The notes under the pieces are model-generated. The model did not search any database. It saw nothing but the letters and a program-made list of their open reading frames with translations, and was not told the DNA's origin. Shown in pieces: positions 1-37,755 of a stretch of DNA of 64,000 nucleotides. The DNA is from an uncultured Pseudomonadota bacterium (GTDB lineage Bacteria > Pseudomonadota > Alphaproteobacteria > JACZXZ01), in assembly GCA_963749075.1 (NCBI GenBank), contig CAVVLJ010000021.1, positions 480,001 through 544,000 of the forward strand, read 5' to 3'. The position numbers and the translations under genes were made by a program. Numbering within the stretch: position 1 is the stretch's first letter; every line of letters begins with the position of its first letter.

Positions 1-171
1 ATCAGAAGCATTTTGTGTACTCTGAGCAGTAGCAATCTCAATTCCGCGTTGGATGTTCTCTAAGGCGACTGCATCCTGTCCTAGGAGGTGCGACGCCCAT
101 CCAAGGTCGTCGACGAGAACCCGTGCTCTGTCCAACGCGGCCTCTGTGTCGACCGCGGCAACAAGCGCCAT
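1..171 (-). CDS. Partial helical/TPR-like hypothetical protein running off the window; either a separate gene from ATG 171 or the frameshifted continuation of 177..809
   Basis: Manual translation MALVAAVDTEAALDRARVLVDDLGWASHLLGQDAVALENIQRGIEIA..., open to base 1. Confidence 0.45.
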   Translation of the reverse strand, partial: MALVAAVDTEAALDRARVLVDDLGWASHLLGQDAVALENIQRGIEIATAQSTQNASD

Positions 172-176
172 TTCAC

Positions 177-809
177 CTAATTTGACTTCTCGTTTGATTC
201 TCCACCGATTAGGTGCAACAGATGAGACATACTTTCGCGAATATGTAGCACAGTGGTCATCTTACCTTGTTGTACAAGCATAGCAACATATTCCGTGAGG
301 GCCTTAACAAATGCAGCTTGACAGTCATTCACGGAAGCATTTTCACGTGGCAACGCTGCGCGTCGAAGAATGGCATTTTGATGCCCTCGGATAAGCGACT
401 CATAGTAGGTCTCGAGCTGTCGGATCCTATCAGATGCGATCTTCTGCCATTGCGCTTCGTCTGGGGCCTTCGGTTTCGTGGCATACGCTTCCCACGCCGA
501 CCCTCGCACCTTCTTCTCAACGCCCTTGGTTCTATAATGGGGGTGAGTCCCACTGTAGCTAAGAGTTGCCAGAAGTTCCGCAGTAACATTAATCTGTCTT
601 GACGACGCGTTCTTGCCCTTCCAAATCGCGCGCTTCCAGTTCGAAAGATCGCTTTGGGACAAACCTAAACTCTTACGAAAATCGCCAGAGTGGTCCCGAC
701 CTTCCGAAAAGGCTGCCGCCACCCAGCTGAAGAAACTCTCAATCGAAGCGATTAAGGTCGGTTCCGGAGGTGGAACCTCCGAGACCTCGTACGTTTCAGG
801 GTCCCCCAT
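177..809 (-). CDS. Hypothetical protein with possible N-terminal XRE-like HTH
   Basis: ORF with GGAGG RBS before ATG 809; FRKSLGLSQSDLSNWKR resembles an HTH. Confidence 0.5.
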   Translation of the reverse strand: MGDPETYEVSEVPPPEPTLIASIESFFSWVAAAFSEGRDHSGDFRKSLGLSQSDLSNWKRAIWKGKNASSRQINVTAELLATLSYSGTHPHYRTKGVEKKVRGSAWEAYATKPKAPDEAQWQKIASDRIRQLETYYESLIRGHQNAILRRAALPRENASVNDCQAAFVKALTEYVAMLVQQGKMTTVLHIRESMSHLLHLIGGESNEKSN

Positions 810-1311
810 GACGCCCTCCGAGGTACACATATCATAAATCGGAGAGGCGTCGCAAGTTGGGCGCTAATTTGCCCAAGATGACGCCCAAGCCCGCGGCCAA
901 ATTTTCCAGAAAATAGGTCCAACTGGGCTACATAAATTGCGCGACGGTACCAAGCTACATTGGTCCTGACGCGTTCGCATGCCAGACCATAATCCCTCAC
1001 TGATGCTCGCGCCACTTCATTAGGAGGGTCCAATGGATCACTTCGTCTTAGCGGCCCATGCGATCGTCTTGGCGATCGCCGCCACCCGCGAGTGGGCCTC
1101 AAGATGCGATGGAACTCATGCGATCGACGAACAATTCGCGATGCACGTCGCTGCGGCAGTCGCCATCTTCGAGTGGCTCAGGGTTATTAGCCTTTTTTGG
1201 GCGTGACAGGGTCGCCGCCGGGACGCCGGCGGCGGTTACTCGCCCGCCTTTGACCTGCCGGTGCTGAGCCCTGCGTTGCCACCTGCGGAACGAGAAACAA
1301 CGGAGAAAAAC

Positions 1312-1783
1312 ATGAGCTACGTTAAACATGAGCTTTTGGCTAACGAAAAGATCATCTTCCAGGGGAGGCTTCACTGGATCATCTTTTGGAAAGCCTTGAC
1401 GTTTGCCATTTGTGGTACTGGAATGCTGCCTCTCGGATACGCGCTTGGTGAAAGCCATGTGGTTATTCTTACGATTTCCGCATTCGCGTATTTTATTGCA
1501 GCTTGTCTGTTCGTGCCCGCTTGGTTTATTCGGTGGACTACGGAGTTCGCGGTCACAAATTTGAGGGTGATACACAAGACCGGATTTGTCTCCCGCCATA
1601 CCGAGGAAATGAATATTGGTAGGATTGAGTTTGTGGACGTTGATCAAACGATCCTCGGAAGAATTTTCGATTACGGTACGATTTCATGTGCTGGGAACCG
1701 GGCACGGTATTGAACACCTTCACTGTATCGCTGAGCCAATTAGGATTAGGAACGCAATTGTTGAAAGAGAGCATAGCTCATAG
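1312..1783 (+). pseudogene. Bacterial PH (bPH_2) domain membrane protein, 1-nt frameshift near 1684
   Basis: Two TM segments, TTEFAVTNLRVIHKTG, VDQTILGRIFDYGTI; family-like tail HVLGTGHGIEHLHCIAEPIRIRNAI continues in another frame to TAG 1783. Confidence 0.7.
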
Positions 1784-1803
1784 TGTCTTGCTCTTCTGCT
1801 GTT

Positions 1804-1900
1804 GGGAACCCTTCTTCGCAACACGTAGAAGATCGCGTTGACGATCTCGCGCCATGTCCAATCACGCGGCCTACTGAGCCGCTCCGGCGGCGGCGGAAGT
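1804..1900 (-). mobile_element. IS5-family transposase N-terminal remnant
   Basis: Translates LPPPPERLSRPRDWTWREIVNAIFYVLRRRVP. Confidence 0.6.
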
Positions 1901-2032
1901 CTAGTGTCTTATTGATGAACCCACGCGGCTACTCGCGCGCTGGAACGGATAACATGGTGCGGTATTGACAGAGCCTAAGTCGAATCCCGATTACAAACGG
2001 GAAGAACGGACGCTCACCGTTACAAAGGACTT

Positions 2033-2674
2033 TCAATCTTCCCAAAAGGACTTGAATCGCTCCGGCGAGAGCTCGGTGTAGCGTACCGTGTGCTGGATAT
2101 TCTTGTGTCCGAGATAGTGCTGTACAGCACGCGTGTCCTGTCCGTCGTTCGCGAGTTTGTACCCGCAGGCGTGCCGGAGCATGTGCGGGTGAATCGGAAA
2201 CGGAAATTTCGCGGTCCCCCCTATCCGTGCAAGCATCTTACGAAATCCCGCGGGCGTCATCGGCGCCCGGCGCTCGGTGTTGAACACGTAGCGCGATTGC
2301 GGCTCCTCGCGCTTGAGCCTGCGAAGTGATCGGATTTCGTTCCCGCCCATCGGATGCACGCTCGGCGTTCCGTTCTTGAGGCGCCGGACGTGGAGCAGAT
2401 CATTTCCCAGATCGACCTGATCCCATCTTAGCACGCAGAGCTCTCCAGGCCGAAGCCCGTGGCGGTACGCCGTGAGGATCATCGTCGCATTGCGATGCCC
2501 GTAGCGCCCCCGCTCCCGAGCGGTGCCCATGAGCAGTCCGACTTCCTTGAGCGTGAGATATTCCCGCGGCCGGCGCGTGCTGTTGCCTACTCGGCGCGGG
2601 GGTACTGTCCCATTTATAGTGCTTGGCGGTCTCCGCCGCCGGATGTTTTTGGCCTTTGTTTTCCCTGTCGCCAT
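2033..2674 (-). CDS. Tyrosine recombinase, FimB/FimE-like, catalytic domain only
   Basis: REYLT, YRHGLR, HPHMLRHACGY, HYLGHKNIQHTVRY (R-H-R-H-Y residues). Confidence 0.9.
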   Translation of the reverse strand: MATGKTKAKNIRRRRPPSTINGTVPPRRVGNSTRRPREYLTLKEVGLLMGTARERGRYGHRNATMILTAYRHGLRPGELCVLRWDQVDLGNDLLHVRRLKNGTPSVHPMGGNEIRSLRRLKREEPQSRYVFNTERRAPMTPAGFRKMLARIGGTAKFPFPIHPHMLRHACGYKLANDGQDTRAVQHYLGHKNIQHTVRYTELSPERFKSFWED

Positions 2675-2681
2675 ATCGTCT

Positions 2682-2713
2682 ACTGTCCCGTTCATGCCTC
2701 TTTTCGGGACAGT
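2682..2713. promoter_or_regulatory. Putative recombinase core/binding site (13-6-13 inverted repeat)
   Basis: ACTGTCCCGTTCA-TGCCTC-TTTTCGGGACAGT; extra half-site ACTGTCCCATTTA at 2604-2616. Confidence 0.5.
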
Positions 2714-3000
2714 TCAACTTTACCACACCCTGGCAGCTCCAAGCATGAACGCTTCTGAACTCGACTCTCCCATTCTCTTCCCTTAACTCGCCACCTCGAA
2801 ATCGATTTCCCTCGAACCGCTATGTCGGCAGGCCACGCTTGCCTGACCTAGGGATACCTTGATGAACGACCTCCTTTTGCGAGCGCCTGCTCAATGCTAT
2901 TCTAAGCGCGCGAGCACCACGATGGTCGACGTCTGGAAAAACGTCGGAGACGATCGGTCTGCGACGCCCCATTCGATAACCCTATTAATCGGAGCGACAC

Positions 3001-4011
3001 TTGCCAGATAGTTCGATAAGGCCGAAAACTAAGCGCCGCAATGGAGCGGTCACACGTGCATATCGCACGAAGCTCGGTAAGATGATCAATGGAACCATCG
3101 AAGATGCCCTTAGTCACCACGAACTAGCTCGAGCTCGAGGCAAGGTCAATCTCATTCTAACTTCGCCACCCTTTCCATTAGTCAGAAAGAAGCGTTACGG
3201 AAACAAGTCAGGAAAAACATATGTCGCTTGGCTTAAGGGCCTCGCGCCCCGGCTCGCCGAGTTGCTCGCGCCGAACGGATCAATTGTGATCGAGGTGGGC
3301 AACGCATGGGTAGAGGGATCGCCTGCCATGTCGACGTTGCCCATTGAAGCGCTTCTTGCATTCAAGAGAGCGGCAAAGCTCCACCTCTGCCAGCATATAA
3401 TTTGCCACAACCCGGCGCGGCTTCCGAGTCCGGCCGAGTGGGTAAATGTCCGACGCATCCGCTTGAAAGACTCGTTCACCCATGTATGGTGGATGTCTCG
3501 ATCCGAGTTACCGAAAGCCGATAATCGAAATGTCCTCACGCCATACGGCAAACAAATGAGGAAGCTTTTGAAAACAAAAAAATATAACTCCGGTAGGCGC
3601 CCGTCTGGCCACGTGATTTCGAAAACGGGATTTCTAAAGGACCGCCAGGGCGCAATCTCGGCCAACGTTATTGACTTTGCTCCCGAAGACCCCAAGTTAC
3701 CCCGCTCCCTTCTAAAATTCTCGGGCACTTCGTGGGACATAAATTACCGCAAATACTGTGAAAAGAAGAAAACAGCCGTTCACCCAGCGCGCATGCAAAT
3801 GGATTTGGCCGCGTTTTTAATACAATTTCTAACTGATCTAGGAGATTTAGTCTTAGACCCTTTTGCGGGATCAAATACAACCGGAGCCGCCGCAGAAGAG
3901 CTTGGCCGCCGCTGGATAAGTGTTGAGGCAATATCCGGATACGTCAAAGGGTCGAAAGGGCGCTTCAATCAGTTCGCGAAGCGTCGGAAGGCGAGCACCA
4001 AAAACCGATAA
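3001..4011 (+). CDS. Beta-class N4-cytosine DNA methyltransferase (M.PvuII-like)
   Basis: TSPPF catalytic motif, NPARLPSPAEWVN, HPAR, C-terminal DPFAGSNTTG SAM-binding motif. Confidence 0.9.
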   Translation: MPDSSIRPKTKRRNGAVTRAYRTKLGKMINGTIEDALSHHELARARGKVNLILTSPPFPLVRKKRYGNKSGKTYVAWLKGLAPRLAELLAPNGSIVIEVGNAWVEGSPAMSTLPIEALLAFKRAAKLHLCQHIICHNPARLPSPAEWVNVRRIRLKDSFTHVWWMSRSELPKADNRNVLTPYGKQMRKLLKTKKYNSGRRPSGHVISKTGFLKDRQGAISANVIDFAPEDPKLPRSLLKFSGTSWDINYRKYCEKKKTAVHPARMQMDLAAFLIQFLTDLGDLVLDPFAGSNTTGAAAEELGRRWISVEAISGYVKGSKGRFNQFAKRRKASTKNR

Positions 4012-4019
4012 GTATCGGA

Positions 4020-5609
4020 ATGGAGGAGGCAATGACCTCTGACAAGATTGAAACCGAGCTCACTATAGGTCCGGAGGCTATCGACGCATATAGCCGGCTC
4101 AATTATACAATGTGGCACGCCCTCGCTGAGTTTATCGATAACTCGACGCAGTCAAGGGTGAACTATGAGCCGATCATTGATGACGTGCTAAAAAGTGAGG
4201 GGCAGCCTCTCACTGTCGAGATTAACCACAACCGCCTACGCAAGGAGATAACCGTTAAAGACAATTCGATTGGAATGACGAGAGACGACCTGATCCAAGC
4301 CCTCCGCATCGCTCATCGAACCAAGGACAGCAAGGGACGTTCGAAGTACGGCATGGGAATGAAGACAGCTGCATGTTGGATAGGTCGCACTTGGAAGGTT
4401 GTGACATGCGAGTGGAGCAGCGGCGAGGAATGGACGGCAGAGATCGATGTCAAAGCGATCGCACATGATAATAAGAAGATTTCGCTGAGTATGCGCCCTG
4501 TAAGTAGGGATGAGCATTACACACAAATAGTCATATCTGACCTCCATCGAAACATCCAGGCGCGCACCGAGGAAACTATCAAAGGGTACCTTGGATCGAT
4601 GTATCGGGTCGATCTCCTCGCGGGCAACCTCAAGATTTTGTACAACGGCGACGAAGTGAAGGCACCGGAAGAATACGACATCGATACAGACCCCTCGGGT
4701 AATCAGTATAAGCGGGAGTTGCCCGAGACTAAGATCAACGGCAAGATTGTAAAAGGCTGGATTGCCGTGCTTCGAAAAGGTGGCCGCAAGTTTGGCGGGT
4801 TTTCGTTGTTCCAAAACAATAGACAAATTCAGGGATTTCCCCACGCATGGAAACCGAGAAGTATTTACGGCGGTGTGGACGATGAAGGGGCCAATAATCT
4901 GATCTCCCAACGCCTCGTGGGGGTTTTCGATTTGGACGGTTTCGAAGTGTCGCATACGAAGGACGCCATTCTCTTCGAGGATGACGAAGAAGAACAGATT
5001 GAACGCCTGCTTTTTGGGTTTACAAAAGACTATCGAGACTACGCGCAAAGGCGTCGTGGCCCGCGCGGAACGCCGTGGTCCCGGGACAAGGTTCGTGACT
5101 TAATCGAGAGCATGAAGAAAGAGTTTGTTACTCCCGAAATGAAGGACGCAATAAACAATTCGCTGCTTCCTCCGATCGACACGATTATCGGAAACAACGA
5201 GCAGCGACGCGACGCGCTAACCGACGCAGAAAAGCTGGCAACGATCGAAGTCCTACCAGAGCTTCGCGTCGTCGTCTCGCTTCAGGAAAAGAGCGAGCAT
5301 GAGCCGCATCTGACGATCGTAGCTGGCGCTACAGCAGGTACTATTCACGTAATTATAAACGGACTGCATCCCTACTACTGCGCCTTAGATTCCAGCGACG
5401 CAGTGGACGAGTGCATTCGTCAATATCTCTATGATGCCATCTCGGAATATCGGGTATCCAAACTCACTGGGGGAATTAATCCCAACAGCATTCGTCGACT
5501 TAAAAACGATCTCCTTCGGGTCGATGCGGTACGGATAGAGGATGCAGCCAAGGCCGTCCAAGATGGAGAGTTTGAGGCAATTATCCGCGGCGAGGCCTCA
5601 AAAGCATAA
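4020..5609 (+). CDS. MORC-like GHKL (HATPase_c) ATPase
   Basis: ALAEFIDNS, KDNSIGM, GRSKYGMGMKTA Bergerat motifs; start may be ATG 4032. Confidence 0.85.
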   Translation: MEEAMTSDKIETELTIGPEAIDAYSRLNYTMWHALAEFIDNSTQSRVNYEPIIDDVLKSEGQPLTVEINHNRLRKEITVKDNSIGMTRDDLIQALRIAHRTKDSKGRSKYGMGMKTAACWIGRTWKVVTCEWSSGEEWTAEIDVKAIAHDNKKISLSMRPVSRDEHYTQIVISDLHRNIQARTEETIKGYLGSMYRVDLLAGNLKILYNGDEVKAPEEYDIDTDPSGNQYKRELPETKINGKIVKGWIAVLRKGGRKFGGFSLFQNNRQIQGFPHAWKPRSIYGGVDDEGANNLISQRLVGVFDLDGFEVSHTKDAILFEDDEEEQIERLLFGFTKDYRDYAQRRRGPRGTPWSRDKVRDLIESMKKEFVTPEMKDAINNSLLPPIDTIIGNNEQRRDALTDAEKLATIEVLPELRVVVSLQEKSEHEPHLTIVAGATAGTIHVIINGLHPYYCALDSSDAVDECIRQYLYDAISEYRVSKLTGGINPNSIRRLKNDLLRVDAVRIEDAAKAVQDGEFEAIIRGEASKA

Positions 5610-5613
5610 CCAC

Positions 5614-6771
5614 GTGGTGCCAAAATTGGAACTCCGAAACTGGCAAAACGAGGCGTTGGCTCGATGGGAGGAGAATAGCCACCGCGGCATAATCGAAGTC
5701 GTTACCGGAGGAGGTAAGACCATATTTGCACTGTCGTGCATCGATAAGCTAAATCCCGATACGTCGCTGGTAGTAGTTCCGACCATTGCGCTATTGGATC
5801 AATGGTGGGAGGAAGCAGCAAGTTTTTTTGGCATCGAGATCGATGAGGTTCATGTCATCACCGGACGGCAGAAGGTCAGAGTTGGCACGATTAATCTTGC
5901 GGTGCTCAACACTGCATCGAAGCTCCATGAACAAGCCCGAAGTCAGCGTTGCTTCCTAATTGTCGATGAATGCCATAAGGCAGCGAGCGAACAATTTCGG
6001 GCCGTCTTGAATATTCCTACGGTTGCGACCCTCGGTTTATCGGCGACACCAGAACGTCCTTACGATGATGGGCTTCGCGCAATTCTTGTTCCTGCCCTTG
6101 GCCCCGTAATTTATACATACAGCTATAGAGACGCCCTTCGTGATGGCGTGATAGTCCCATTCGCCCTTCGCAACATACTATTTGAGCTCGAGGAGGACCG
6201 GCAAAAAGAATATAGCAAGCTTACCAAAGCAATCGCCCGTACCATTGACCTGTATGGTGTTGACGCACAAGAGACGGTCAAGCTGTTTTTACGCCGCGCC
6301 CGAGTGCTAAATCTTAGTCTCAATCGCGTTCGTTTGGCCCTGAAAATTGTTGCCGCCCATAAAGGTCAGCGAGTGTTGATTTTTCACGAGGACATCGAAG
6401 CATGCAATTTGATTCACCAGATTCTTGCGGAAAACAAAGTGCGGGTTGGAATATATCACTCGAAGATGTTGCTTCGTGACCGTGTTGACATGCTGTCGGC
6501 ATATCGCAGGGGCGTCGTGGATGTGCTCGTCACCTGTCGGGCGCTTGATGAAGGGTTCAATGTGCCTGAGACTGAGATCGGTATTATAGCCGCGAGCACG
6601 GCAACGAGGCGTCAGCGCATCCAGCGTCTGGGGCGAGTCCTCCGCCCCTCTATGGGCAAGGGCAGAGCCATTGTATATACCCTCGTTGCAACCGAGCCGG
6701 AAATTGGGCGGTTGCAAGCGGAAGAAACGGACCTTGAGGGTGTCGCTGATGTGACGTGGGGGCACGCGTGA
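5614..6771 (+). CDS. SF2 DExH helicase (ResIII/XPB-like)
   Basis: LRNWQ, TGGGKT, DECH, LGLSAT, LDEGFNVP, QRLGRVLR. Confidence 0.9.
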   Translation: MVPKLELRNWQNEALARWEENSHRGIIEVVTGGGKTIFALSCIDKLNPDTSLVVVPTIALLDQWWEEAASFFGIEIDEVHVITGRQKVRVGTINLAVLNTASKLHEQARSQRCFLIVDECHKAASEQFRAVLNIPTVATLGLSATPERPYDDGLRAILVPALGPVIYTYSYRDALRDGVIVPFALRNILFELEEDRQKEYSKLTKAIARTIDLYGVDAQETVKLFLRRARVLNLSLNRVRLALKIVAAHKGQRVLIFHEDIEACNLIHQILAENKVRVGIYHSKMLLRDRVDMLSAYRRGVVDVLVTCRALDEGFNVPETEIGIIAASTATRRQRIQRLGRVLRPSMGKGRAIVYTLVATEPEIGRLQAEETDLEGVADVTWGHA

Positions 6772-6945
6772 GAACGATTTTTGTTGGTGAATGCGCCCCG
6801 GACAAGATTCTTCACGTGTCCGACCCTGACGCTCCGAACGAAACCCAATTCGAGTTTATGGTGGTTAGAGCGTTATCATGCGTCTACCCTGACTATTTAT
6901 GCTTCATTTTTGGTGGATCGTTTCGTTACGATGACAAACTTTGCC
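6768..6945 (+). pseudogene. 5' fragment of fourth operon gene (possible PD-(D/E)XK nuclease), cut by IS3
   Basis: GTG overlaps helicase stop (GTGA); 59 codons ending FRYDDKLC at the IS left end. Confidence 0.6.
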
Positions 6946-7013
6946 TGAGCTGGTCCTGGAAAATCGGACAGGGTGATAAGGTGTATTCCGCCGGATAACG
7001 GAGGGATACGACG

Positions 7014-8599: not shown

Positions 8600-8676
8600 G
8601 TCCCCGTAGCTCAGCAGGATAGAGCGACAGATTCCTAATCTGTAGGCCGTGGGTTCGAATCCCGCCGGGGACGCCA
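8600..8676 (+). tRNA. tRNA-Arg(CCT)
   Basis: Acceptor stem GTCCCCG/CGGGGAC, anticodon loop TTCCTAA, GGTTCGAATC T-arm, encoded CCA. Confidence 0.95.
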
Positions 8677-15523: not shown

Positions 15524-15561
15524 ATATCGTACGATATAGTGTAAGATATCTAGTTGTCAAG
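15524..15561 (-). promoter_or_regulatory. padR promoter and palindromic operator
   Basis: CTTGAC-N16-CTATAT on minus strand; perfect palindrome ATATCGTACGATAT 15524-15537. Confidence 0.6.
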
Positions 15562-15660
15562 AAAAAAGATCGAGGGGATTGCAGCTCGCGCGGGACTTGT
15601 CGCCGTGAGTGGGATCGGTGATCTTGAGCAGCCAGCGCAGCACCTCTCGCGGGAGGTTTC

Positions 15661-16146
15661 ATGAAGGCGGCTGATTTCATCGCTCGGCACTGGAAGATTT
15701 GGGGCGGGCTCGGGCTTTACGCCAAGTTCGAGCATGTCGTGGCTGCCGTCCTTGTCGTCATGATCTCGGCGCTCATCGTCGCCGCGATGCTGAGTCTGGC
15801 CCTCGATGTCGCCCGCCTTCTTGCCGGCGGGCTCGATGCGCTCAAGGACGCCGGCATCGAGGAGATCTTCGGCCGCATCATGACGGTGCTCATCGCCCTC
15901 GAGTTCAACCTCTCGATCGCGCAAGTGCTGGAGCATCACGGCCACCTGGTGCAGGTGCGCACCGTCGTGCTCGTCGCCATCCTCGCCGTCGCGCGCAAGT
16001 TCATCATCATCGATCTGGAGGCGATGAGCTGGGAAGCGCTCATCGCACTCGCGGTCGTTATTGCCGCACTGGGCGCCACCTATTGGGTGCTCGCCGCAAC
16101 GGTGCGCAAGCAGCAAGCCGGCCCCGGCCGCCATGGTGAGAATTAG
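15661..16146 (+). CDS. PsiE-family membrane protein
   Basis: IMTVLIALEF, AILAVARKFIIID; GGAGG RBS. Confidence 0.8.
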   Translation: MKAADFIARHWKIWGGLGLYAKFEHVVAAVLVVMISALIVAAMLSLALDVARLLAGGLDALKDAGIEEIFGRIMTVLIALEFNLSIAQVLEHHGHLVQVRTVVLVAILAVARKFIIIDLEAMSWEALIALAVVIAALGATYWVLAATVRKQQAGPGRHGEN

Positions 16147-16182
16147 CGCCGGCCGCGGGAGGCGGATTGAAGAGCCGCCGCC

Positions 16183-17106
16183 ATGAGCGTCGCCAAGAGC
16201 GTACTCGTCAGCATCGTCATGCCCGCCTTCCAGGCGCGCGCGACCATTGCCGCCGCCGCAGCCAGCGTCGTGGCGCAGAGCCATCGCGAGTGGGAGCTCC
16301 TCATCGTCGCCGACGACGGCAGCGATTATGCGCACGTGCTGCGGCAGGCCGGCATCGCCGACGCGCGCCTGCGCTTTTTCGCGAGCCCGGCTCCCGGCAG
16401 CGGCCCGGCGGCGGCGCGCAATTTAGCACAGCGCCACGCGGCGGGCGCCCTCGTGACGCGTCTCGATGCCGACGACCTCTATGAGCCGGAGCGCCTAAAA
16501 GTCCTGGTGCCGCTTGCGCTGCGCCACGGCGTTGCCGCCGACAATGGCGTGGCATTCGAGGACGGCGGGCGGGAGCTCGGCACGCTGCTGCCGCGCGGCG
16601 AGGGCAGCGCGGCCGTGGGCCCCCTCGAGCTCATGGTCTCGCCCTTTTCCTGGTGTCTCGTCTTCCGCCGCGAGCTCTTGCCGGCGTGGGACGAGGACGT
16701 GCCCTTCGCCGAGGACGTCCTCTTCAACGCGCGCGCCTTCGAGGAGTGCCAGGCACTCCCCGTCGATCGCCGCGTGCTGTGGCGCTATCGCGTGGCGGCG
16801 CGCTCGCTCTCCCACGGTGCAGGTGCTGCCGAGCGCGCCGAGGCGGGCTATGCCCGCCTGCTGGCCGAGTGCGCCGCCGGGGCGCCGCGCTTCGAGAAGC
16901 CGGCGCTGCAGGAGACCTGGTGCCGGGCGCTGGCGGAGAAGCGCGCGCTCAACCGCAAATTCGCCGCCGTCTTCGCGGCCGGACAAGCGGCGAGCTTCCA
17001 GGAATGGGCATTCGCGCGCACCGCTGCCGCCGCCGCCGGTCCTCGAGGCGGGGCAGAGGGGCGCGCGCTCAATCGAACTCGAAGGCCACGTCGCGCGGGC
17101 GCTTGA
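16183..17106 (+). CDS. Glycosyltransferase family 2
   Basis: VSIVMPAF, ADDGS, GPAAARN, LDADD. Confidence 0.85.
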   Translation: MSVAKSVLVSIVMPAFQARATIAAAAASVVAQSHREWELLIVADDGSDYAHVLRQAGIADARLRFFASPAPGSGPAAARNLAQRHAAGALVTRLDADDLYEPERLKVLVPLALRHGVAADNGVAFEDGGRELGTLLPRGEGSAAVGPLELMVSPFSWCLVFRRELLPAWDEDVPFAEDVLFNARAFEECQALPVDRRVLWRYRVAARSLSHGAGAAERAEAGYARLLAECAAGAPRFEKPALQETWCRALAEKRALNRKFAAVFAAGQAASFQEWAFARTAAAAAGPRGGAEGRALNRTRRPRRAGA

Positions 17107-30726: not shown

Positions 30727-31554
30727 ATGCTCAAGAGATTCGTTCCGGCACTCCTTGCCGCCGCCTTGGCCGTCTCGGCCGGAGCGGCGCACGCGGCGGA
30801 GGCACCCTCCGTGTGGGCGGACATCATGGCCAAGAAGAAGCTGCTGCTCTGCGTCATCCCCTCCTACCAGCCCTATGCCTGGAAGGACGAGAACGGCACC
30901 TGGCAGGGCTTCGCGCCCGAGATGGGCCGCGACGTGGCGAAGGACCTCCACGTCGACATCGAGTTCGTCGAGACCACGCAGGGGACCATCGTCCTCGACC
31001 TGCAGAGCGGCAAGTGCCACACCTACTTCGCCTTCAACGCCACGCCCGAGCGCGCGCTTGCCATCGACTTTGCCGGGCCGATCTACACGCTCGGCTTCAT
31101 CTTCATCGACCGCAAGGGCTGGAAGCCGCCGGGCAGCCGCTGGGCCGACTTCAACGATCCCGCCATCCGCATCTGCTACGTGATCGGCGCCAGCCAGGAG
31201 CAGCAGATCAAGCGCTATACGCCCAAGGCGACGCCGGTCGGCCTCGCCAAGGTCGACGACTGCCTGCTCTCCGTGCAGAGCGGGCGCGCCGACACTTATC
31301 TCGCCGCCACGCTCGACGGCCTGGTGACCAAGCAGAAGAACCCGGAGGTGGGCGACCTCGTCTTCCCGGTGCCGCCCAACGCGCTCCCCTCCTATGCCGG
31401 GATGCGCATCGATTCCGACGGCCGCTTCCAGAAGTTCATGCAGCGCTGGGCCGAGTATAATCGGGCCAACGGCAACGTGGCGGAGTGGCTAATCGGCGCC
31501 TTGGGGAAGTACGGCGTCAGCCGCAGCACGATTCCGTCGGACATCCAGTTCTGA
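30727..31554 (+). CDS. Amino-acid ABC substrate-binding protein (family 3)
   Basis: Signal peptide; collinear with 21483..22310. Confidence 0.88.
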   Translation: MLKRFVPALLAAALAVSAGAAHAAEAPSVWADIMAKKKLLLCVIPSYQPYAWKDENGTWQGFAPEMGRDVAKDLHVDIEFVETTQGTIVLDLQSGKCHTYFAFNATPERALAIDFAGPIYTLGFIFIDRKGWKPPGSRWADFNDPAIRICYVIGASQEQQIKRYTPKATPVGLAKVDDCLLSVQSGRADTYLAATLDGLVTKQKNPEVGDLVFPVPPNALPSYAGMRIDSDGRFQKFMQRWAEYNRANGNVAEWLIGALGKYGVSRSTIPSDIQF

Positions 31555-31619
31555 CTGCCTGTGGCTCGCTCGGGCAGGGCAACCCCCGGCCCGAGCGAGC
31601 CAGCTTCGCGAGGTACGCC

Positions 31620-32588
31620 ATGCTTCCGCCGAAAGAGCGCTTGACGATCTGCTTCGCCCATATCGCCTATCAGTTCCAGGCGCGCTTCGCCGCGCGCGCG
31701 ACCGGCATCGCGAGCTTCGAGGTGCGCGAGAAGGGCGAGCTCGAGCGCCGCATTCCCGAGGCCGACGTGCTGCTGGTCTCCGGCATGTGGCAGAACGACC
31801 TCGCCGCGCGGGCGGCGAAGCTCGGCTTCATCCAGTCGATCAGCGCCGGGGTCGACCAATATTCGCGCGACACGCTCGCCCAGCACGGCATCCGCCTCGC
31901 GAGCGCGCAAGGGGTCAACGCGCGCGCCGTCTCCGAGCATGCCATCGCCCTCATCCTCGCCCTTGCCCGGCGTCTGCCCGAGGCCGGCCGGAACCAGATG
32001 AGGCGCGTCTGGCGCGGCATGATCGGCGACCTCTCCCAGCGCGAGGACGAGCTCGGCGGCAAGACGCTCGTCCTCGTCGGGCTCGGGCACATCGGAGGAC
32101 GCCTGGCCGAGCTCGCCAAGGCCTTCGACATGCGCGTCATCGGCATCCGCCGCAATCCCGCGGCCGGCAGCGGCGGCGCCGACGAGGTGCACGGCACGGC
32201 CGAGCTCAAGAGGCTCCTCCCGGAGGCCGACTTCGTGGCGCTCACCTGCGCGCTCACCAAGGAGACGGAGAAGCTGATCGACGCCGAGGCGCTCGCGCGC
32301 ATGAAGCCCTCGGCCTTTCTCGTCAACGTGGCGCGCGGGCGCTGCGTCGACGAGCCGGCGCTCGTGAAGGCGCTTCAGGAGCGCCGCATCGCGGGCGCCG
32401 GCATCGACGTGACGGTGGAGGAGCCGCTCCCCCCCGCCTCGCCGCTCTGGGGCCTCGAGAACGCCTTCATCACGCCGCACACCGCCGGCGAAACGCGGCG
32501 CTACGAGGACAACGTCCTCGATCTCCTCATGGAGAACCTGGGCCGGTTGTGGCGCGGCGAGACGAGCTTGCGTAATCAGATCGTCTAG
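31620..32588 (+). CDS. D-2-hydroxyacid dehydrogenase
   Basis: GLGHIG, NVARG, EEPLP, ITPH. Confidence 0.9.
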   Translation: MLPPKERLTICFAHIAYQFQARFAARATGIASFEVREKGELERRIPEADVLLVSGMWQNDLAARAAKLGFIQSISAGVDQYSRDTLAQHGIRLASAQGVNARAVSEHAIALILALARRLPEAGRNQMRRVWRGMIGDLSQREDELGGKTLVLVGLGHIGGRLAELAKAFDMRVIGIRRNPAAGSGGADEVHGTAELKRLLPEADFVALTCALTKETEKLIDAEALARMKPSAFLVNVARGRCVDEPALVKALQERRIAGAGIDVTVEEPLPPASPLWGLENAFITPHTAGETRRYEDNVLDLLMENLGRLWRGETSLRNQIV

Positions 32589-32752
32589 GGCCCGAAGCTC
32601 TCCAGCAGGTCGCGCCACGGCGCGCCCGATCGCAAGAGCCAAAGGGCGCCGTTGAGAATGCGCCTGTCATCCACACGGGGAATACCGCGTGGCTTGTTTG
32701 GCAGCTTCGGCTTGATGGCACGCCAGTTATAGTCGGCGGGTTCGTGCCGCAT
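32585..32752 (-). mobile_element. IS5-family transposase remnant
   Basis: MRHEPADYNWRAIKPKLPNKPRGIPRVDDRRILNGALWLLRSGAPWRDL. Confidence 0.75.
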
Positions 32753-32817
32753 GAGTCGATGCTCCTCCTTGGGAGCTTGAATCGCGGCCGGTGCGAAGCG
32801 ATCAACAGCGAACCAGC

Positions 32818-32891
32818 ATCTCCGAAGTCACCCGCTAACCGGACATGAGGCGGACATTGGCGAATCGACGCGAATGACCCCAATGAGACAT
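32818..32891 (+). repeat. Partial copy (E) of structured repeat family
   Basis: Ends TGACCCCAATGAGACAT like the other copies. Confidence 0.5.
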
Positions 32892-33017
32892 TAGGCCGCA
32901 CACGCTATCCGTACCCAAATAGACGGCTTCAAAACTCTTCAGATGTGCTAATTTTCGATTTGGTCGGGGTTTTGTCCTGACCTGAGAACAAACAATTTGT
33001 TGCAATGGAGGTTCCAA

Positions 33018-33305
33018 ATGCCCGTCGTCGTCGTTGTTCATCGTCTCAAAAATTTTGATGAGTGGATTAAGATATTCAAGGCCGACCCCCCACCAAAAAT
33101 TGGCCGTTGGCGACTGTTACGCGGAAGCGACGATCGCAACCGAGTTCACGTTGTCGGGGACGTGGCAGCGTCGGAAGTTGAGGCCGTTAAGGATTTTCTT
33201 GGGTCGCAACACATGCAAAATGTGTTTAAGCGTGTTAACGCAATGTCGACGGCGCCGCTCGAATTCATCTGGCTCGAAGAGCTAGGGTCTGGACTCACAA
33301 TTTGA
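33018..33305 (+). CDS. Small hypothetical protein; last codons replaced by IS5
   Basis: GGAGG RBS; pre-insertion end reconstructs as WLEELAL*. Confidence 0.75.
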   Translation: MPVVVVVHRLKNFDEWIKIFKADPPPKIGRWRLLRGSDDRNRVHVVGDVAASEVEAVKDFLGSQHMQNVFKRVNAMSTAPLEFIWLEELGSGLTI

Positions 33306-34108
33306 TCCAGTAGAGTGCGCCGACGAGGGCTGCGGCGGCAAGGAAGTTTCTGGCCAGCTTGTCGTATCGGGTTGCGATGCGCCGCCAATCCTTGATGCGG
33401 CAGAAGTAATTTTCGATCTTGTGCCGCCTGCGATAGATGCGCTTGGGACAATAGGCTTTCTTGGTGGCATTGCTGCGGCTGGGGATGACGGGCAAGGCAC
33501 CTTCGTCCCTGATCTGCTGGCGGACCTTTTGGCTGTCATAAGCCTTGTCGGCCGCGACGGCGAGGGGCGGCTTGGGCGTGTCCAGTACCGCTTCGACGAC
33601 TTGGCTGTCATGGACCTGTGCGCCCGTGACGATGAAGTTCAGCGGGCGGCCTTTGCCGTCGACGACCGCATGGATCTTCGTGCTGCGCCCGCCCCGGCTA
33701 ATACCGATCGCCTGATTTTTCTCCCCCCTTTTGCGCCGCTCGCCGCGCGATGCGCTTTCACGATGGTGCTGTCGATCAGATAGAGGCTATCGTGCGATGT
33801 CGCGGCCAGCGCGTCGAAAATCCGCTTCCAGATGCCGCGGCGAGACCAGCGGTTGAAGCGATTGTAGACCGTCGTGTAAGGCCCATAGCGCTCCGGCAAA
33901 TCTCGCCACGGCATGCCGGTGCGCAGCACGTAGAAGATGCCATTCATGATCCGGCGATCATCCTCTCGCGCCTTCTTGCGAAGGCCCGGCATCAACGGCT
34001 CCAGCACAGCCCATTCCTCGTCGCTCAAATCAAACCGCATGATCCACCTCCAACCACGGTGAATCACATTCGGACAACTTTTTCAAGACATTATGCGGGT
34101 ACAGACCC
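33285..34108 (-). mobile_element. IS5-family (IS427-group-like) element, two-ORF transposase (34040-33295)
   Basis: Ends GGGTCTGGAC / GTACAGACCC, TA duplication within CTAG; IDSTIVKAH, IENYFCRIKDWRRIATRYDK. Confidence 0.92.
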
Positions 34109-34238
34109 TAGCACTCTAGTTAGCTAGCGATACGAGGGGCATTATCTGCCCCGTATCACGCCGACGTGGACGGTAAGTTCACGCCGCGCGGCAGCGTTTA
34201 GACCTGGATAGAACGCGCGCAGAGGTGCCAGCAAGTCG

Positions 34239-34357
34239 ATGTTGCTTCTTGGCACCTTGCGGCGGTGCCGGCAGCATGCGGGCGCTTCCGGAGCTGAAGG
34301 AATAGCTGCCGCGCCACTGACATGGGCGGATGACTCAGGCTGACCCGAAGGCGACAT
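34239..34357 (+). repeat. 119-bp structured repeat, copy A
   Basis: ATGTTGCTTCTTGGCACCTTGCGGCGGTGCCGGCAGC...GAAGGAATAGCTGCCGCGCC...TGACCCGAAGGCGACAT. Confidence 0.9.
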
Positions 34358-34656
34358 TCAGTACTGCTGTCAATGGTACGTAACCAGAGGGGAAAGCCTA
34401 GTAGGTACTCACCGGGTTTAGCCCCGCGCCCCTCTATTCAATCAAGATCGGCGCAAGCTGCTTCCCTGGCTTGAGAGCCGCGGCGCGTGTCATGGCAGGG
34501 CAGAATAAGGCGCGCGATAGATGAAGCAGAGTAGTCCGCGCAATGGCCTGTTGCTTCCGCACGTCGCAAGGCGTATCAACCCAAATGGCTCCAATCGCCG
34601 CTGGATGAAACTTCAGTGGCATGTCAACTTGATCAGACAAATCAGCGTCAGGGAAG

Positions 34657-34881
34657 ATGATCGCCAGCGACGATAAGAAGGTTAAAACTAACCCCGCTCA
34701 AAAAAATGAGGCCCCTCCGAAGAGCAAGGGCACTTCAGGTGTAGACCTATCCAAGGCTAAGGGCGGCGAGATAGCTGCCGACTTACCCTCCGGCTATAGC
34801 AGGGGCGAGAGCCAGAAACCGGTTTCCCAAGCTTATAAAGATAACTGGAACGTGATTTTCGCGAAGAAAAGAAAGCGATAA
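34657..34881 (+). CDS. Small basic hypothetical protein
   Basis: C-terminal YSRGESQKPVSQAYKDNWNVIFAKK looks like a conserved motif. Confidence 0.6.
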   Translation: MIASDDKKVKTNPAQKNEAPPKSKGTSGVDLSKAKGGEIAADLPSGYSRGESQKPVSQAYKDNWNVIFAKKRKR

Positions 34882-34939
34882 TTCGCGTAATGGAGCAGGT
34901 GTAGCCGGTGTAGCAGTAGCTCGGCGCAGTCAAGCGCTC

Positions 34940-35047
34940 GGCCGCTTCTCCTCGTTCGCTGCGATGCATCAACACGGCCGCTATCGAAGGGTAACCCGAC
35001 GGTCTGCGTAAATTGCGGCACCGCGGCCCATGACCCAAAGCAGATAT
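34940..35047 (+). repeat. Diverged/partial copy (D) of structured repeat family
   Basis: Central GAAGGGTA and terminal TGACCCAAAGCAGATAT. Confidence 0.55.
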
Positions 35048-35220
35048 TCTCCATCATGGCCCATATCTGAGTCAGCGCTGCCCAGGCCCGCGCTGGCGAC
35101 AGGTTCAGTTGGAATTTCTAAGGCGGCGCGGTGCGGATCAGCTCTCGCCAGCGCCGGTCTCGCGCGAAACATGCTCCGTCTGGACTACGCGGTACTGTAG
35201 GTCGATTTGCTCTGCTCGAG

Positions 35221-35703
35221 CTAACGCGGACCGACCTGCAACGGCGCAGGCAAGCTATCGGGGAGCTTGCCCAGCATCTGCAACGCCGCTTGCATACCGA
35301 TGATGTAGCCGTAATTCCCAAGTCCGCAGATGACCGCTCTAACGGCCGACGACAGTTTGGAATGCCGGTGCAGCTCATCGCGTGCGTGAATGTTCGATAT
35401 GTGGACCTCAATGATAGGACCTTCAAAAATCTTGAAGGCATCCAGCATCGCGATTGAGGTGAAAGAATATCCCGCTGGGTTGATGATGATCGCATCGGCG
35501 TCCTGGCGTGCAGATTGAATCAGGTCGACTAATACGCCCTCGTGGTTCGACTGATGAAACGCCAGGCGAGCGCCGGCGAATTTGGCGAATTCCTCGCAGC
35601 TTGCCTTGACGGTCTCGAGTGTCGTCCTGCCGTAAATGTCCGGCTCGCGGGTGCCAAGAAGGTTGAGGTTAGGCCCATTCAGAACCATCAGGCGTGCGGT
35701 CAT
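35221..35703 (-). CDS. aroQ: Type II 3-dehydroquinate dehydratase
   Basis: LNGPNLNLLGTREPDIYG, QSNHEG, IINPA, EVHISNIHAR. Confidence 0.92.
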   Translation of the reverse strand: MTARLMVLNGPNLNLLGTREPDIYGRTTLETVKASCEEFAKFAGARLAFHQSNHEGVLVDLIQSARQDADAIIINPAGYSFTSIAMLDAFKIFEGPIIEVHISNIHARDELHRHSKLSSAVRAVICGLGNYGYIIGMQAALQMLGKLPDSLPAPLQVGPR

Positions 35704-35751
35704 GGCTTTTCCTTTCGGGCCTTCAGTTTCTGGATTGTGAGACGGTCTAGC

Positions 35752-36065
35752 TTATTTTCCGTCATGGAACAGCGTCGCGAGCGCCTCGGTGGTCCGCACA
35801 AGGATGCCCGCGTCGACACCAACGGCCGTAAAGGTCGTGCCAAGTTCGATGCAACGAGCCGCAAATGCGGCGGCGGGTGTCAAGATGCCAGCGGGCTTGC
35901 CGCACGTGCGAATTCGCCTGATGGCATCTTCGATGATCATCTTGACCTTCGGATGGCCAGGTTCGCCAACGTGGCCGAGGCTCGCCGCCAGATCGGTCGG
36001 GCCGATGAACACACCATTGACACCGTCGATTGACGCAATCTGCTCCAGGCGATCGAGCGCCTCAG
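35752..36065 (-). pseudogene. 3' fragment of HpcH/HpaI aldolase
   Basis: GVFIGPTDLAASLG...GKPAGIL...GVD; N-terminal half absent. Confidence 0.8.
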
Positions 36066-36190
36066 CTACTGACGATCACCGCCCGATGATAGCACTCCGA
36101 AGGTACTCGAAGCCTCGATATCTTGCGCGCTGGCACGCCGAGGGTGCGACTTTCCATATCGGAATGACTGTCTGCCGGCGCCTATCGTGA

Positions 36191-36309
36191 AAGTCTGTTC
36201 GTGGCACCTTGCGGCGGTGCCGGCAGCGTGCGGGCGTGTCCGGGGTTGAAGGAATAACTGCCGCGCCGCCGACGTGGGCGCATGGCCCAGGATGACCCGA
36301 ACCAGACAG
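36191..36309 (+). repeat. 119-bp structured repeat, copy B
   Basis: AAGTCTGTTCGTGGCACCTTGCGGCGGTGCCGGCAGC...TGACCCGAACCAGACAG. Confidence 0.9.
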
Positions 36310-36462
36310 CCGCGATGATCCAGACCCGCACCGGCATCGTGGGTGCTTGCCCGACGTATCGAAACGGGGCAGATTTCCGTCCGGGCCAGAGAGCATCTGG
36401 GGCATGTAGGTCGCAAGGGGCCTCCGAGAGGATAGGTTTGGCCGAACGCACAGGAGCGAGCC

Positions 36463-36942
36463 ATGAGACAGGCAGGAAGAATTGCGGCGACGGCTGTTGG
36501 CGTCTTGCTCGCGCTGACTGCGGCGGCGCTACCGGCACGGGCTCAAGTCCCATGCTCGACCGTTTGCAGTAGGTACGATCAAGGTCAATGCGTTCAGTAC
36601 ACGCACTACGGCTGCGAGGGCGCGGCCCCGTCCGCCCCCGCCAACAGCTACGGCGCTATTGCCTTCGGCTCCAAGAGCAGGGCCTGGGGCGTGTCCTATC
36701 ATTGGGGCAGCGAGGCGAAAGCGGAGAGCGTTGCCATGCAAAGCTGCAAGCAGCACGGCGACGATTGCGAAGTGATGGTGTGGTTCGACCGCAAATGCGG
36801 AGCGGTGGTGGCGGCCGACGGTGCCGCCGCCTTTTGGGGGCTTGGCGACAGCGAAGCCGAGGCGCGCGCGGACGCCCAAACCAAATGCGAGCAAGGCGGC
36901 GGCAAGGGTTGCAAGGTGTGGGCTTATCAGTGTTCGAAGTGA
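36463..36942 (+). CDS. Secreted Cys-rich DUF4189-like protein
   Basis: Signal peptide; YGAIA, A...C...G.DC.V..W...CGAV, terminal C..W..QCS. Confidence 0.8.
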   Translation: MRQAGRIAATAVGVLLALTAAALPARAQVPCSTVCSRYDQGQCVQYTHYGCEGAAPSAPANSYGAIAFGSKSRAWGVSYHWGSEAKAESVAMQSCKQHGDDCEVMVWFDRKCGAVVAADGAAAFWGLGDSEAEARADAQTKCEQGGGKGCKVWAYQCSK

Positions 36943-37322
36943 GGGTTTGGAAGTCTGACCGCGGGCGAGTGAGGGTGCCTCTCATCGTCAGCCTCCTCCT
37001 AATTTTCCTTCGTCCCGCAATCGCCGACTGTGTGACCGGCGAACATTTCGCCTGTGTGACGCTGGATGGATTTGACGAGGTGGCAGCGGCGCTGAAAGCG
37101 GGCAATCCAAACGTCATTCACACGCCGGGTTGCGATTATACGGAGCCGGGTCACAAAGTCGAAGTAATAGGACCGATGGCCGCTCTCGCCGAACCCATTG
37201 CCATATTCTATGGCGATTCGGCAGTCACCAGAGCGAGCGGCGTGCCCGATGTATTTCGATCATTGGCGCAGTCAGGATGGATCCACGTCTGGACGATCAA
37301 GGAGAACGTTGTATGCAATTGA
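36939..37322 (+). CDS. Secreted hypothetical protein
   Basis: GTGA overlap; LIVSLLLIFLRPAIA signal; 4 Cys. Confidence 0.55.
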   Translation: MRVWKSDRGRVRVPLIVSLLLIFLRPAIADCVTGEHFACVTLDGFDEVAAALKAGNPNVIHTPGCDYTEPGHKVEVIGPMAALAEPIAIFYGDSAVTRASGVPDVFRSLAQSGWIHVWTIKENVVCN

Positions 37323-37446
37323 AGCACTATCCCTCTTTCGGCGGGGTTGCCGCGCTGTCGCTCTCTGGCTTAGTCACGATTTCTCTTGTTGCGTGCATGG
37401 GTTGCCTTCGATCGTTCAGATGAAGTCCGGTGTGCGGTCCGGCGCG

Positions 37447-37562
37447 ATGTCTGCTTATGGCACCTTGCGGCGGTGCCGGCAGCGTGCAGGCGTGTCCGGG
37501 GTTGAAGGAATAGCTGCCGCGCCGCTGACGTGGTCGGATGGCCCAGGATCTCGAGCGGACGC
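37447..37562 (+). repeat. Structured repeat, copy C (small 3' deletion)
   Basis: ATGTCTGCTTATGGCACCTTGCGGCGGTGCCGGCAGC...GAGCGGACGC. Confidence 0.88.
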
Positions 37563-37755
37563 CGGCATTCGTGCATCGTTTAGCGCGTGTACCTTCCTCG
37601 AAATTCATACGACGGCGCAATCGCCGCTTGCCGCACGGGCGTCGACACCATAACGAGCCGAACCGCGGGCCTGTTCAGGGCAAAGCGTTGCTCGCGACCG
37701 TGGTGCCGATGGCCTGAATCGGCAGCCCGCAAGACCGATCGTCGTGCCTCTTGAT

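Follow-up and report, generated by a model that had tools for sequence, protein, structure and literature searches.

A ~120-bp DNA repeat with the hexamer TGACCC near its 3' end separates small, unrelated blocks of genes in a low-GC island of an uncultured alphaproteobacterium. The island lies at 32600-37600 of the stretch analysed here (64,000 nt, hereafter the window; positions 480,001 to 544,000 of contig CAVVLJ010000021.1, assembly GCA_963749075.1). The repeat belongs to a family confined to one uncultured soil alphaproteobacterial genus, in which gene blocks exchange between related contigs at a fixed position inside TGACCC. On balance, the repeats are probably recombination sites that bound mobile cassettes, with exchange at TGACCC by an enzyme acting in trans. 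An earlier reading of the window, made from its letters without database searches (the original prediction), had described the array and proposed recombination sites folded as single strands in an integron-like capture system. Its observation is partly confirmed and its interpretation partly supported by the analysis reported here.

The window holds three copies of the repeat, A, B and C, all on the forward strand. A repeat search returned them as a single ungapped family of three 111-nt members starting at 34246, 36198 and 37454, with 78-85% identity; aligned including their flanks, they show a mean column identity of 82% over 154 columns. The full copy A (34239-34357, +; nhmmer E 6e-34) consists of a 5' arm (34239-34249), a core (34250-34340), TGACCC (34341-34346), and a 3' arm (34347-34357). 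Copy B (36190-36309, +) is likewise full, with its 5' arm at 36190-36201, core at 36202-36292, TGACCC at 36293-36298, and 3' arm at 36299-36309. Copy C (37447-37563, +) retains arm and core to 37549 and carries CTCGAGCGGACGCC (37550-37563) in place of TGACCC and the usual arm; its profile match ends at model position 108, and we propose that it marks the end of the array. Thus, the three near-identical, co-oriented copies of the original prediction are present (34239, 36190/36191, and 37447, +), with a conserved core and with TGACCC in A and B but not in C. Two diverged or partial copies suggested at ~32818 and ~34940 did not hold up as copies, as a search with an 18-member profile (nhmmer --max, E<=1) found only A, B, and C in the window, but both exist as short right-end pieces. 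The piece near 34940 is a reduced, yet genuine site at 35031, since a full copy occupies the corresponding position in the orthologous metagenome contig L045. This reduced copy (35001-35047, +) comprises a GTCTG-containing arm and a core relic of ~20 nt, identified by eye (35001-35030), followed by TGACCC (35031-35036) and a 3' arm (35037-35047).

The exchange point was mapped by an all-against-all comparison of 250-nt flanks, in which copies sharing one side only define a junction. Seven of the eight informative junctions, all between related contigs, fall inside TGACCC, and the nearest mismatches bracket the switch point to the hexamer itself. Four pairs share only their 5' side. Here, identity amounts to 85-98% in the 5' flank and likewise to 85-98% in the core, with matches at 12-13 of 13 positions in the 5' arm and at 5-6 of 6 in TGACCC. 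Past the hexamer, the 3' arm is down to 4-9 of 14 matches and the 3' flank to random level. The three pairs that share only their 3' side mirror this pattern: identity is 77-100% in the 3' flank, 10-14 of 14 positions match in the 3' arm, and the core is at paralogue level (77-91%), with 7 of 13 matches in the 5' arm. The repeats thus act like borders of exchangeable gene blocks with breakpoints at a fixed repeat position, which was the test put forward with the original prediction.

One such cassette is found in two contexts. The aroQ block of the window (35031-36298) corresponds to L045:2239-3506 with 95.4% identity over 1268 nt, a match that begins with the first letter of one TGACCC and ends with the final letter of the following one. 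Upstream of the block, the window has a small-ORF (open reading frame) block and the reduced site, whereas a PF04392-like gene with a full copy precedes it in L045. On the downstream side, the window continues into a DUF4189 block and L045 into the tail of a PF04392-like gene.

Orientation follows a strict rule. Adjacent copies at one locus are co-oriented in 19 of 19 pairs, at a spacing of 0.67-5.1 kb (three duplicate loci dropped). Such arrays occur in 11 multi-copy metagenome contigs, in the repeat-bearing genomes G002 and G003, and in the window. One copy faces the opposite way, on G003 contig C28, 12.5 kb away from an array.

A second rule concerns right ends that stand alone. The motif TGACCC-N3-6-[CG]RGAC occurs outside full copies eight times in 207 kb of non-redundant repeat-bearing loci, compared to 1.57 +/- 1.33 occurrences (maximum 7) in 200 Markov-1 control runs. 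All eight of these solo right ends lie upstream of, and on the same strand as, the nearest full copy; thus, each solo and its full copy bracket a block. The bracketed block is often a single gene with 6-120 nt to spare, as in the tight brackets at L026 (solo at 15469, ORF 15526-16203, copy at 16209) and L045 (solo at 1033, ORF 1150-2127, copy at 2139). Two examples in the window's genome (G000) and in L050 are located 10-14 nt downstream of a PF04392 stop codon, the gene ending '...DEVIE', which suggests the ends of PF04392 genes as a favoured insertion point.

These patterns bear on the view that the repeat is a selfish or neutral element of the miniature inverted-repeat transposable element (MITE), repetitive extragenic palindrome (REP), or bacterial interspersed mosaic element (BIME) type. 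The exchanges would then come about by homologous recombination between copies or by transposase-driven rearrangement adjacent to one active end. The repeat is indeed a short intergenic sequence that codes for no protein and carries a small inverted motif at its ends (GTCYG/CRGAC). It is present at 5-10 copies per genome in a single genus, insertion sequence (IS) elements lie around it in the window, and no dedicated recombinase was found. We nevertheless consider this explanation unlikely. Homologous recombination fits poorly because crossovers would be expected in the middle of the core, its best-conserved part, and not in the last hexamer as in seven of eight junctions, and because the 35031 junction has scarcely any core to pair with. 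A simple MITE fits poorly as well, because target duplications are lacking, no Y1 HUH transposase was found in G000, copies are clustered and co-oriented (19/19), and flanks are shared on one side only. The longest flanking direct repeats, of 3-6 nt, are distributed as in cross-copy controls, so the target duplications that had been named as counter-evidence to the original prediction were not found. No Y1 HUH or REP-associated (RAYT) transposase was detected in G000, which is 96% complete (PF01797, 0 matches). Moreover, the ends of the IS5-family element in the window (inverted repeat I14) are unrelated to the repeat, and the solos obey their side and orientation rule in eight of eight cases.

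The window's genome (5.49 Mb, 23 contigs, 68% GC) contains five full copies, three in the window and one each at C4:167228 and C16:332046, and one 40-nt fragment on C22. A family profile (R1) matched 5 of 11 genomes of the order, all of genus g1 (G000 and four of five others), and none of five genomes from the other four genera. By BLAST, the repeat was found in four of the five other species of the genus, and one weak 33-nt match was obtained among 55 other genomes searched. A pattern scan of one genome per species returned nine stretches from four same-genus metagenome-assembled genomes (MAGs), labelled 'Alphaproteobacteria bacterium', and nothing else; a scan of JGI metagenomes gave 22 contigs with the repeat. 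Altogether, MAGs and metagenome contigs yielded 55 profile hits, 51 of them distinct. A 25-nt core stretch was absent from the papers searched, supplements excluded, and keyword searches returned just general papers on integrons and integrative mobilizable elements (IMEs).

An alignment of 45 near-full copies (A3) reveals a conserved centre and loose ends: mean pairwise identity is 82-86% in the core and 41-45% in the arms. The arms have only a short inverted motif of 5-7 nt in common, ATGTCYG on the left and CRGACAT on the right, with GTCYG in 27 and [CG]RGAC in 22 of the 45 copies at the aligned columns. Six or seven copies, including C and the copy on C16, are without the usual arm and lose similarity at the hexamer, which is what exchange with a non-cognate site would leave.

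Two variations within the family deserve mention. In A3 columns 20-25 (36208-36213 in copy B), six copies have CGAAGCCG or CGAAACCG and the others CCTTGCGG, which turns one possible C-G pair into G-C and changes the loop; this switch is probably a single event that defines a subfamily. Further, at G003 C28:11148-11425 and C2:6470-6724 (L026, L028), a copy is duplicated together with ~160 nt of upstream sequence at 85% identity, so that the duplicated unit reaches past the 5' arm.

Several other readings of the core were tried and set aside. The forward strand reads ATG...TGA across the core, but substitutions are spread evenly over the codon phases (53/51/52), without the periodicity of a protein-coding sequence. 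TGGCAC...TTGC in the core is similar to the sigma-54 promoter consensus, but by eye the spacing is ~4 nt too short. CAGGAT is the reverse of a MOB-P nick core; however, its key base is the variable column, and the junction lies 3' of it.

The original prediction had seen the sites as folded single strands closed by termini that differ between copies, yet stay complementary within each. For A, B, and C, this complementarity is real: their own-arm duplexes rank 1, 3, and 2 of 18. It does not extend to the family. Own-arm duplexes average -8.75 kcal/mol against -7.94 kcal/mol for cross-copy duplexes in 18 copies (permutation p=0.09), and -7.42 against -7.02 kcal/mol in 41 copies (p=0.15), a set that leaves out seven copies without anchor motifs and seven duplicate or truncated copies. 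Co-variation between the arms at the two ends of one cassette, tried as a variant of this idea, does not hold either (n=16, -7.6 kcal/mol, compared to -7.0 kcal/mol in the background). The two stems inside the repeat, GGCACC/GGTGCC and GGCAGC/GCTGCC, fared similarly: pairing is possible in 88-92% of cells, but the covariation score of 0.097 is no higher than that of shuffled alignments (0.096; 236 of 500 shuffles as high). RNAalifold found a compensatory change in 0 of 24 pairs, and an all-against-all scan of column covariation returned isolated pairs and no helix, the best being a C-G to G-C change in 6 of 45 copies. Fold z-scores of A, B, and C relative to shuffled sequence, on both strands, are -1.54 to +0.35 for RNA and -1.49 to +0.95 for single-stranded DNA. 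Since neither fold stability nor covariation exceeds expectation, the core is conserved as primary sequence. Recognition of the duplex sequence is thus preferred over the folded single strand of the original prediction, and the data favour a site that is recognised double-stranded.

The same results make it very unlikely that the repeat is a structured RNA, be it a small RNA gene or an untranslated-region element, with a variable closing stem and a conserved core. Copies A, B, and C could close with a terminal stem if G-U pairs are allowed, and the loop-proximal C-G to G-C change in six of the 45 copies would suit such an RNA. However, own arms pair no better than foreign arms, and none of three helices shows covariation above shuffles. 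The only gathering-threshold match of Rfam 15 in the window is a tRNA, and at E<=10 the region 32700-37700 gave four chance-level matches, none on the repeats; the Rfam match raised as counter-evidence to the original prediction is therefore lacking at either cut-off. In addition, no conserved promoter or terminator is seen by eye inside the element, whose flanks differ, and its orientation relative to neighbouring genes is mixed.

Many of the genes beside the copies are unrelated to each other, among them aroQ, malic enzyme, an amidohydrolase, an acyl-CoA dehydrogenase, CHAT, and a methyltransferase-like ORF. Their GC content at third codon positions (GC3) is 0.55-0.80, compared to 0.85-0.93 in flanking genes. 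The G003 arrays, like the one in the window, lie in low-GC stretches. Two kinds of neighbour recur. Adenylate/guanylate cyclase domains fused to TPR, AAA, or PAS domains were found in six of nine large ORFs in one set and in one more (L046, L049, L050, L052, L059). PF04392 substrate-binding proteins, many ending '...DEVIE', are encoded near copies in L026, L029, L050, and L051, and for at least eight copies a PF04392-like gene ('...DEVIE', stop) has its 3' end ~11-14 nt past the 3' arm.

Such recurring neighbours could point to a cis-regulatory or protein-binding element of expanding paralogous families (PF04392, cyclase-TPR, DUF4189) that was spread by segmental duplication, with the cassette pattern as a by-product. 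A core kept as primary sequence without structural covariation would agree with this. We regard it as improbable, however, as many neighbours are unrelated and the genes lie on either strand and on either side of the repeat. Moreover, duplication end-points would not be expected on the same hexamer in seven independent comparisons, and 99-100% identity on one side only indicates recent events and not old paralogy.

The recombinase that would act on the repeats was sought in the genomes of the genus. The integron integrase model TIGR02249 gave no match above its 265-bit cut-off in five genomes (G000, G001, G002, G003, and G005; best score 96.7 bits), confirming the absence of intI noted before. 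Among nine PF00589 matches in G000, none lies within 30 kb of a copy, and neither a tyrosine recombinase nor an HUH transposase, the enzymes the original prediction had in mind, is found near the arrays. IS91-type transposases (PF04986) gave 0 matches, but control genomes likewise gave 0, which renders this result uninformative. The tyrosine recombinases common to all members of the genus are XerC and XerD, encoded in G000 at C21:601.9-603.3 kb and C17:1134.5-1135.5 kb, respectively. Serine recombinases occur in G000 (2), G003 (8 hits), and G005 (1), and none was found in G001, G002, or G004; the small resolvase of G000 lacks an orthologue in G001, G002, and G005. Pfam scans of the copy-holding contigs revealed no integrase-bearing parent element that uses the repeat as its site, although one may be concealed by the fragmentation of the MAGs. 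Genomes with a higher recombinase load have more copies (G003 > G000, G002 > G001, G005 > G004, the last with none), as expected of any mobile DNA.

The tyrosine recombinase closest to the array in the window is encoded 30 kb away at 2033-2695 (-). Its ~220 residues match FimB/FimE-type invertase models best, with 143.7 bits compared to a cut-off of 221 bits. It lies in a separate low-GC island (1-7000, 50-53% GC), with a tRNA gene at 8600-8673 (+); no link to the array was found.

A number of observations weigh against the interpretation of the repeats as recombination sites. With respect to the enzyme, a Pfam scan of 59 ORFs beside copies found no recombinase, the sole mobility match being an IS fragment, with the ORFs of the IS5 element outside the scan. 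G001 and G005 carry copies, yet the tyrosine recombinases found there are only XerC and XerD orthologues, and no serine recombinase was found in the repeat-bearing G001 and G002, both fragmented MAGs. These absences are weak evidence because fragmented MAGs tend to lose mobile elements. Regarding the site, A3 shows by eye no inverted pair of binding sites around TGACCC, unlike a canonical core site, and multi-gene cargo blocks in both orientations are unlike compact promoterless cassettes. The eighth informative junction lies off the repeat: G003 contig C28 and L059 are 99.1% identical over 3040 bp of TRAP-transporter genes and diverge 160-195 nt upstream of the first copy, where no TGACCC is present. 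This junction forms the outer border of the variable region next to the TRAP-transporter genes, behind which the first cassette holds malic enzyme in one contig and a PAS-cyclase in the other. Such variable content of one locus in two nearly identical strains counts, by itself, in favour of the cassette reading. Neither circles nor other excised forms were seen among the Logan contigs of the sequencing runs, which are short, break in the repeats, and could not show one. In the runs X1, X2, X3, and X5, joints between copies are ambiguous for the same reason, so that the cassette order in the window rests on the assembler.

Finally, all evidence comes from MAGs and metagenome contigs, and short-read unitigs break inside the repeats. 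Mis-joined contigs could therefore have produced false one-sided pairs and false arrays. We consider such an assembly artefact highly improbable, because arrays recur in independent assemblies, namely the 11 metagenome contigs, G002, G003, and the window. Moreover, the 35031 junction has just the hexamer in common with a full copy, which is too short for a chimera, and the members of 3'-sharing pairs differ by 10-20% right up to the hexamer.

For the recombination sites that we favour, the following mechanism can be proposed. The ~120-bp repeat, a ~95-bp core with short flanking motifs, would be the DNA recombination site at the downstream end of a mobile gene cassette. A cassette would extend from just past one TGACCC to the next TGACCC and thus comprise the 3' arm (usually CRGACAT), a cargo of 0.5-5 kb in either orientation, the 5' arm (ATGTCYG), and the core. 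Strand exchange would take place in, or at the edge of, TGACCC, after which the upstream DNA would keep the 5' arm and core and the downstream DNA would take the 3' arm along. Cassettes inserted beside a resident site would build up co-oriented arrays, whereas insertion at a short TGACCC-plus-arm sequence would give rise to a solo at the left end and a full site at the right end; several such sequences lie just behind a PF04392 stop codon. Exchange would be enzymatic and site-specific, would involve circular or otherwise mobile intermediates, and would depend on an enzyme encoded elsewhere. Read in this way, the window would hold, in order, the solo or solos, cassette 1 (a small ORF, later hit by an IS5 element), copy A, cassette 2, the reduced site, cassette 3, copy B, cassette 4, and copy C, the latter as a site with a non-cognate right half.

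The contents of the island agree with what had been listed from the sequence, namely aroQ, an HpcH fragment, DUF4189, and small ORFs without a Pfam family, and its GC content of 50-66% is lower than the 66-78% of its surroundings. At the left edge of the island lies an N-terminal fragment of an IS4/IS5-family transposase (32585-32752, -; PF13340 DUF4096, E 1.6e-13), which begins directly at the stop codon of a 2-hydroxyacid dehydrogenase gene (31485-32588). It is followed by a solo right-end-like motif read from the sequence (32828-32846, +; TCACCC, 6 nt, CGGACAT), which has no repeat core ahead of it and is part of a ~75-nt stretch that recurs at G000 C22:60951. A solo right end proper (32875-32891, +; TGACCC, CAAT, GAGACAT) has the same orientation as copy A, lies 1364 nt upstream of it, and is proposed as the left junction of the first cassette.

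This region also displays a second, shorter repeat type, in which CGGACAT is followed after 21-28 nt by TGACCC-N4-CRGACAT. It occurs at 32820-32893 of the window and, in G000, at C22:60951(-), C16:689702(-), C17:807843(-), and C4:163539(+); the window and C22 sites have GCTAACCGGACATG in common. These sequences could represent empty sites in tandem, or else a minimal version of the recombination site described here.

Cassette 1 carries a small ORF of 102 aa (32997-33305, +; GC3 0.55) without a Pfam or NCBIfam family, whose 3' end enters a complete IS5-family insertion sequence (33282-34107, -). The arms of the inverted repeat I14 of this element lie at 33278-33299 and 34094-34115, and it encodes a 142-aa ORF (33639-34067, -). 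As the small ORF ends within the element, the insertion altered its C-terminus. The element is polymorphic: contigs of the runs X1 and X3 lack 826 nt and lead from 33281 straight to 34108 with four shared letters, which fits a 4-bp target duplication. Cassette 2 contains a small ORF of 74 aa (34657-34881, +), likewise without a Pfam or NCBIfam family. Cassette 3 (35037-36298), delimited by the L045 match, closes with the arm, core, and TGACCC of copy B and carries aroQ, a class II dehydroquinase gene (35221-35703, -; PF01220), and a C-terminal HpcH/HpaI fragment (35752-36012, -; Pfam). The cargo of cassette 4 (36463-37322, +) consists of the DUF4189 gene (36463-36942; PF13827, E 2.7e-18) and a further ORF that matches no family (36963-37322). 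In its 3' two-thirds (36629-36945), the DUF4189 gene is 94% identical to a copy in G005:C285 (L069:1501-1817), compared to ~82% for conserved flanking genes between the species. This likeness, which does not follow the cassette borders, may reflect a recent transfer, or a gene conversion, that affected part of the cargo.

In its behaviour, the system is closest to integron cassettes, especially to the attC repeats of chromosomal integrons and to single cassettes at secondary sites, and near to the accretion of integrase-less modules. Sedentary chromosomal integrons contain homogeneous ~120-bp attC repeats, and attC clusters without an integrase are known as CALIN (clusters of attC sites lacking integron-integrases). 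The arrays described here likewise consist of co-oriented ~120-bp sites between unrelated, compositionally foreign genes. Their exchange point is fixed near the 3' end of the site, with the last bases travelling with the next cassette, and single cassettes have a short site at their left and a full one at their right; some cassettes are compact and carry one gene. In contrast to attC, the repeat lacks RYYYAAC/GTTRRRY boxes throughout A3, as the original prediction had observed for the window, and ends in nnAnGTCnG... and ...CGGACAT. It is conserved in the centre and loose at the ends, whereas attC is the reverse. It further lacks excess single-strand stability and structural covariation, it occurs without IntI in the five genomes searched, and its cargo can reach 5 kb and hold several genes in both orientations.

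Other mobile modules share part of this behaviour. Cis-mobilizable elements (CIMEs), IMEs, satellite-like islands, and staphylococcal cassette chromosome (SCC)-type cassettes are bounded by direct att repeats, mobilised by a recombinase encoded elsewhere, and accrete in tandem. As in these elements, direct att-like repeats bound the modules, exchange occurs in a short identical overlap, and junctions are asymmetric, with the solo resembling attL and the full copy attR. The enzyme would lie outside the module, and arrays would grow by insertion next to an existing site. In contrast, the repeated part does not correspond to the 3' end of a tRNA gene or of another conserved gene, the very small modules of 0.5-5 kb carry no mobilisation or excision genes, and no integrase-encoding element was found for the site. 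Compared to MITE, REP, BIME, and REPIN (REP doublets forming hairpins) elements, the repeat is similarly a short, lineage-specific sequence that lies between genes, codes for no protein, and has a small inverted motif at its ends, but differs by its lack of target duplications and RAYT, its low copy number, its co-oriented clusters, and its flank exchange at a fixed point.

Two classes of host or resolvase site were also compared. As in Xer/dif modules, a host enzyme would act in trans on site-bounded modules. A candidate chromosomal dif site in G000 (C16:1180756), an AT-rich 28-bp palindrome-like sequence located with a dif motif, is unlike the repeat, and nothing similar is found around TGACCC. 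Plasmid dif (pdif) sites, moreover, are 28 bp long and alternate in orientation, whereas the repeats are co-oriented. A res-like site would agree with the ~120-bp length, the crossover near one end, the direct repetition, and a remainder that could hold accessory sites. A weak 28-bp palindrome is centred on TGACCC (4-5 of 7 positions matching), and the shared short motif resembles a resolvase half-site. No resolvase is common to the repeat-bearing genomes, and the res-like reading serves as a lead only. By these tests, the repeat is not a member of the integron family, REP/RAYT or MITE, a known RNA, or a dif module. It is possible, and we say so tentatively, that the repeats define an integron-independent cassette system. 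Such a system would use a sequence-conserved, double-stranded ~120-bp site with exchange at TGACCC and a recombinase encoded away from the arrays, possibly of a class not yet tied to cassette capture, and would reshuffle arrays of metabolic and signalling genes.

Integrons are the textbook route by which bacteria store and shuffle single genes. Beyond them, we know of few systems that move small blocks site-specifically with an enzyme in trans, such as Xer/dif modules and SCC-type cassettes. In a lineage known solely from metagenomes, a different site displays the same population-level signature as integrons: co-oriented arrays, a fixed exchange point, and one block in different contexts. Should the repeat turn out to be a remnant of an ordinary family of integrase-borne islands, it would still be a clean example of accretion at a non-tRNA site. 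If its enzyme is found, it would represent a second, independent route to cassette-style genome plasticity, and the repeat would provide a sequence handle for pulling the accessory genes of this group from soil and peat metagenomes.

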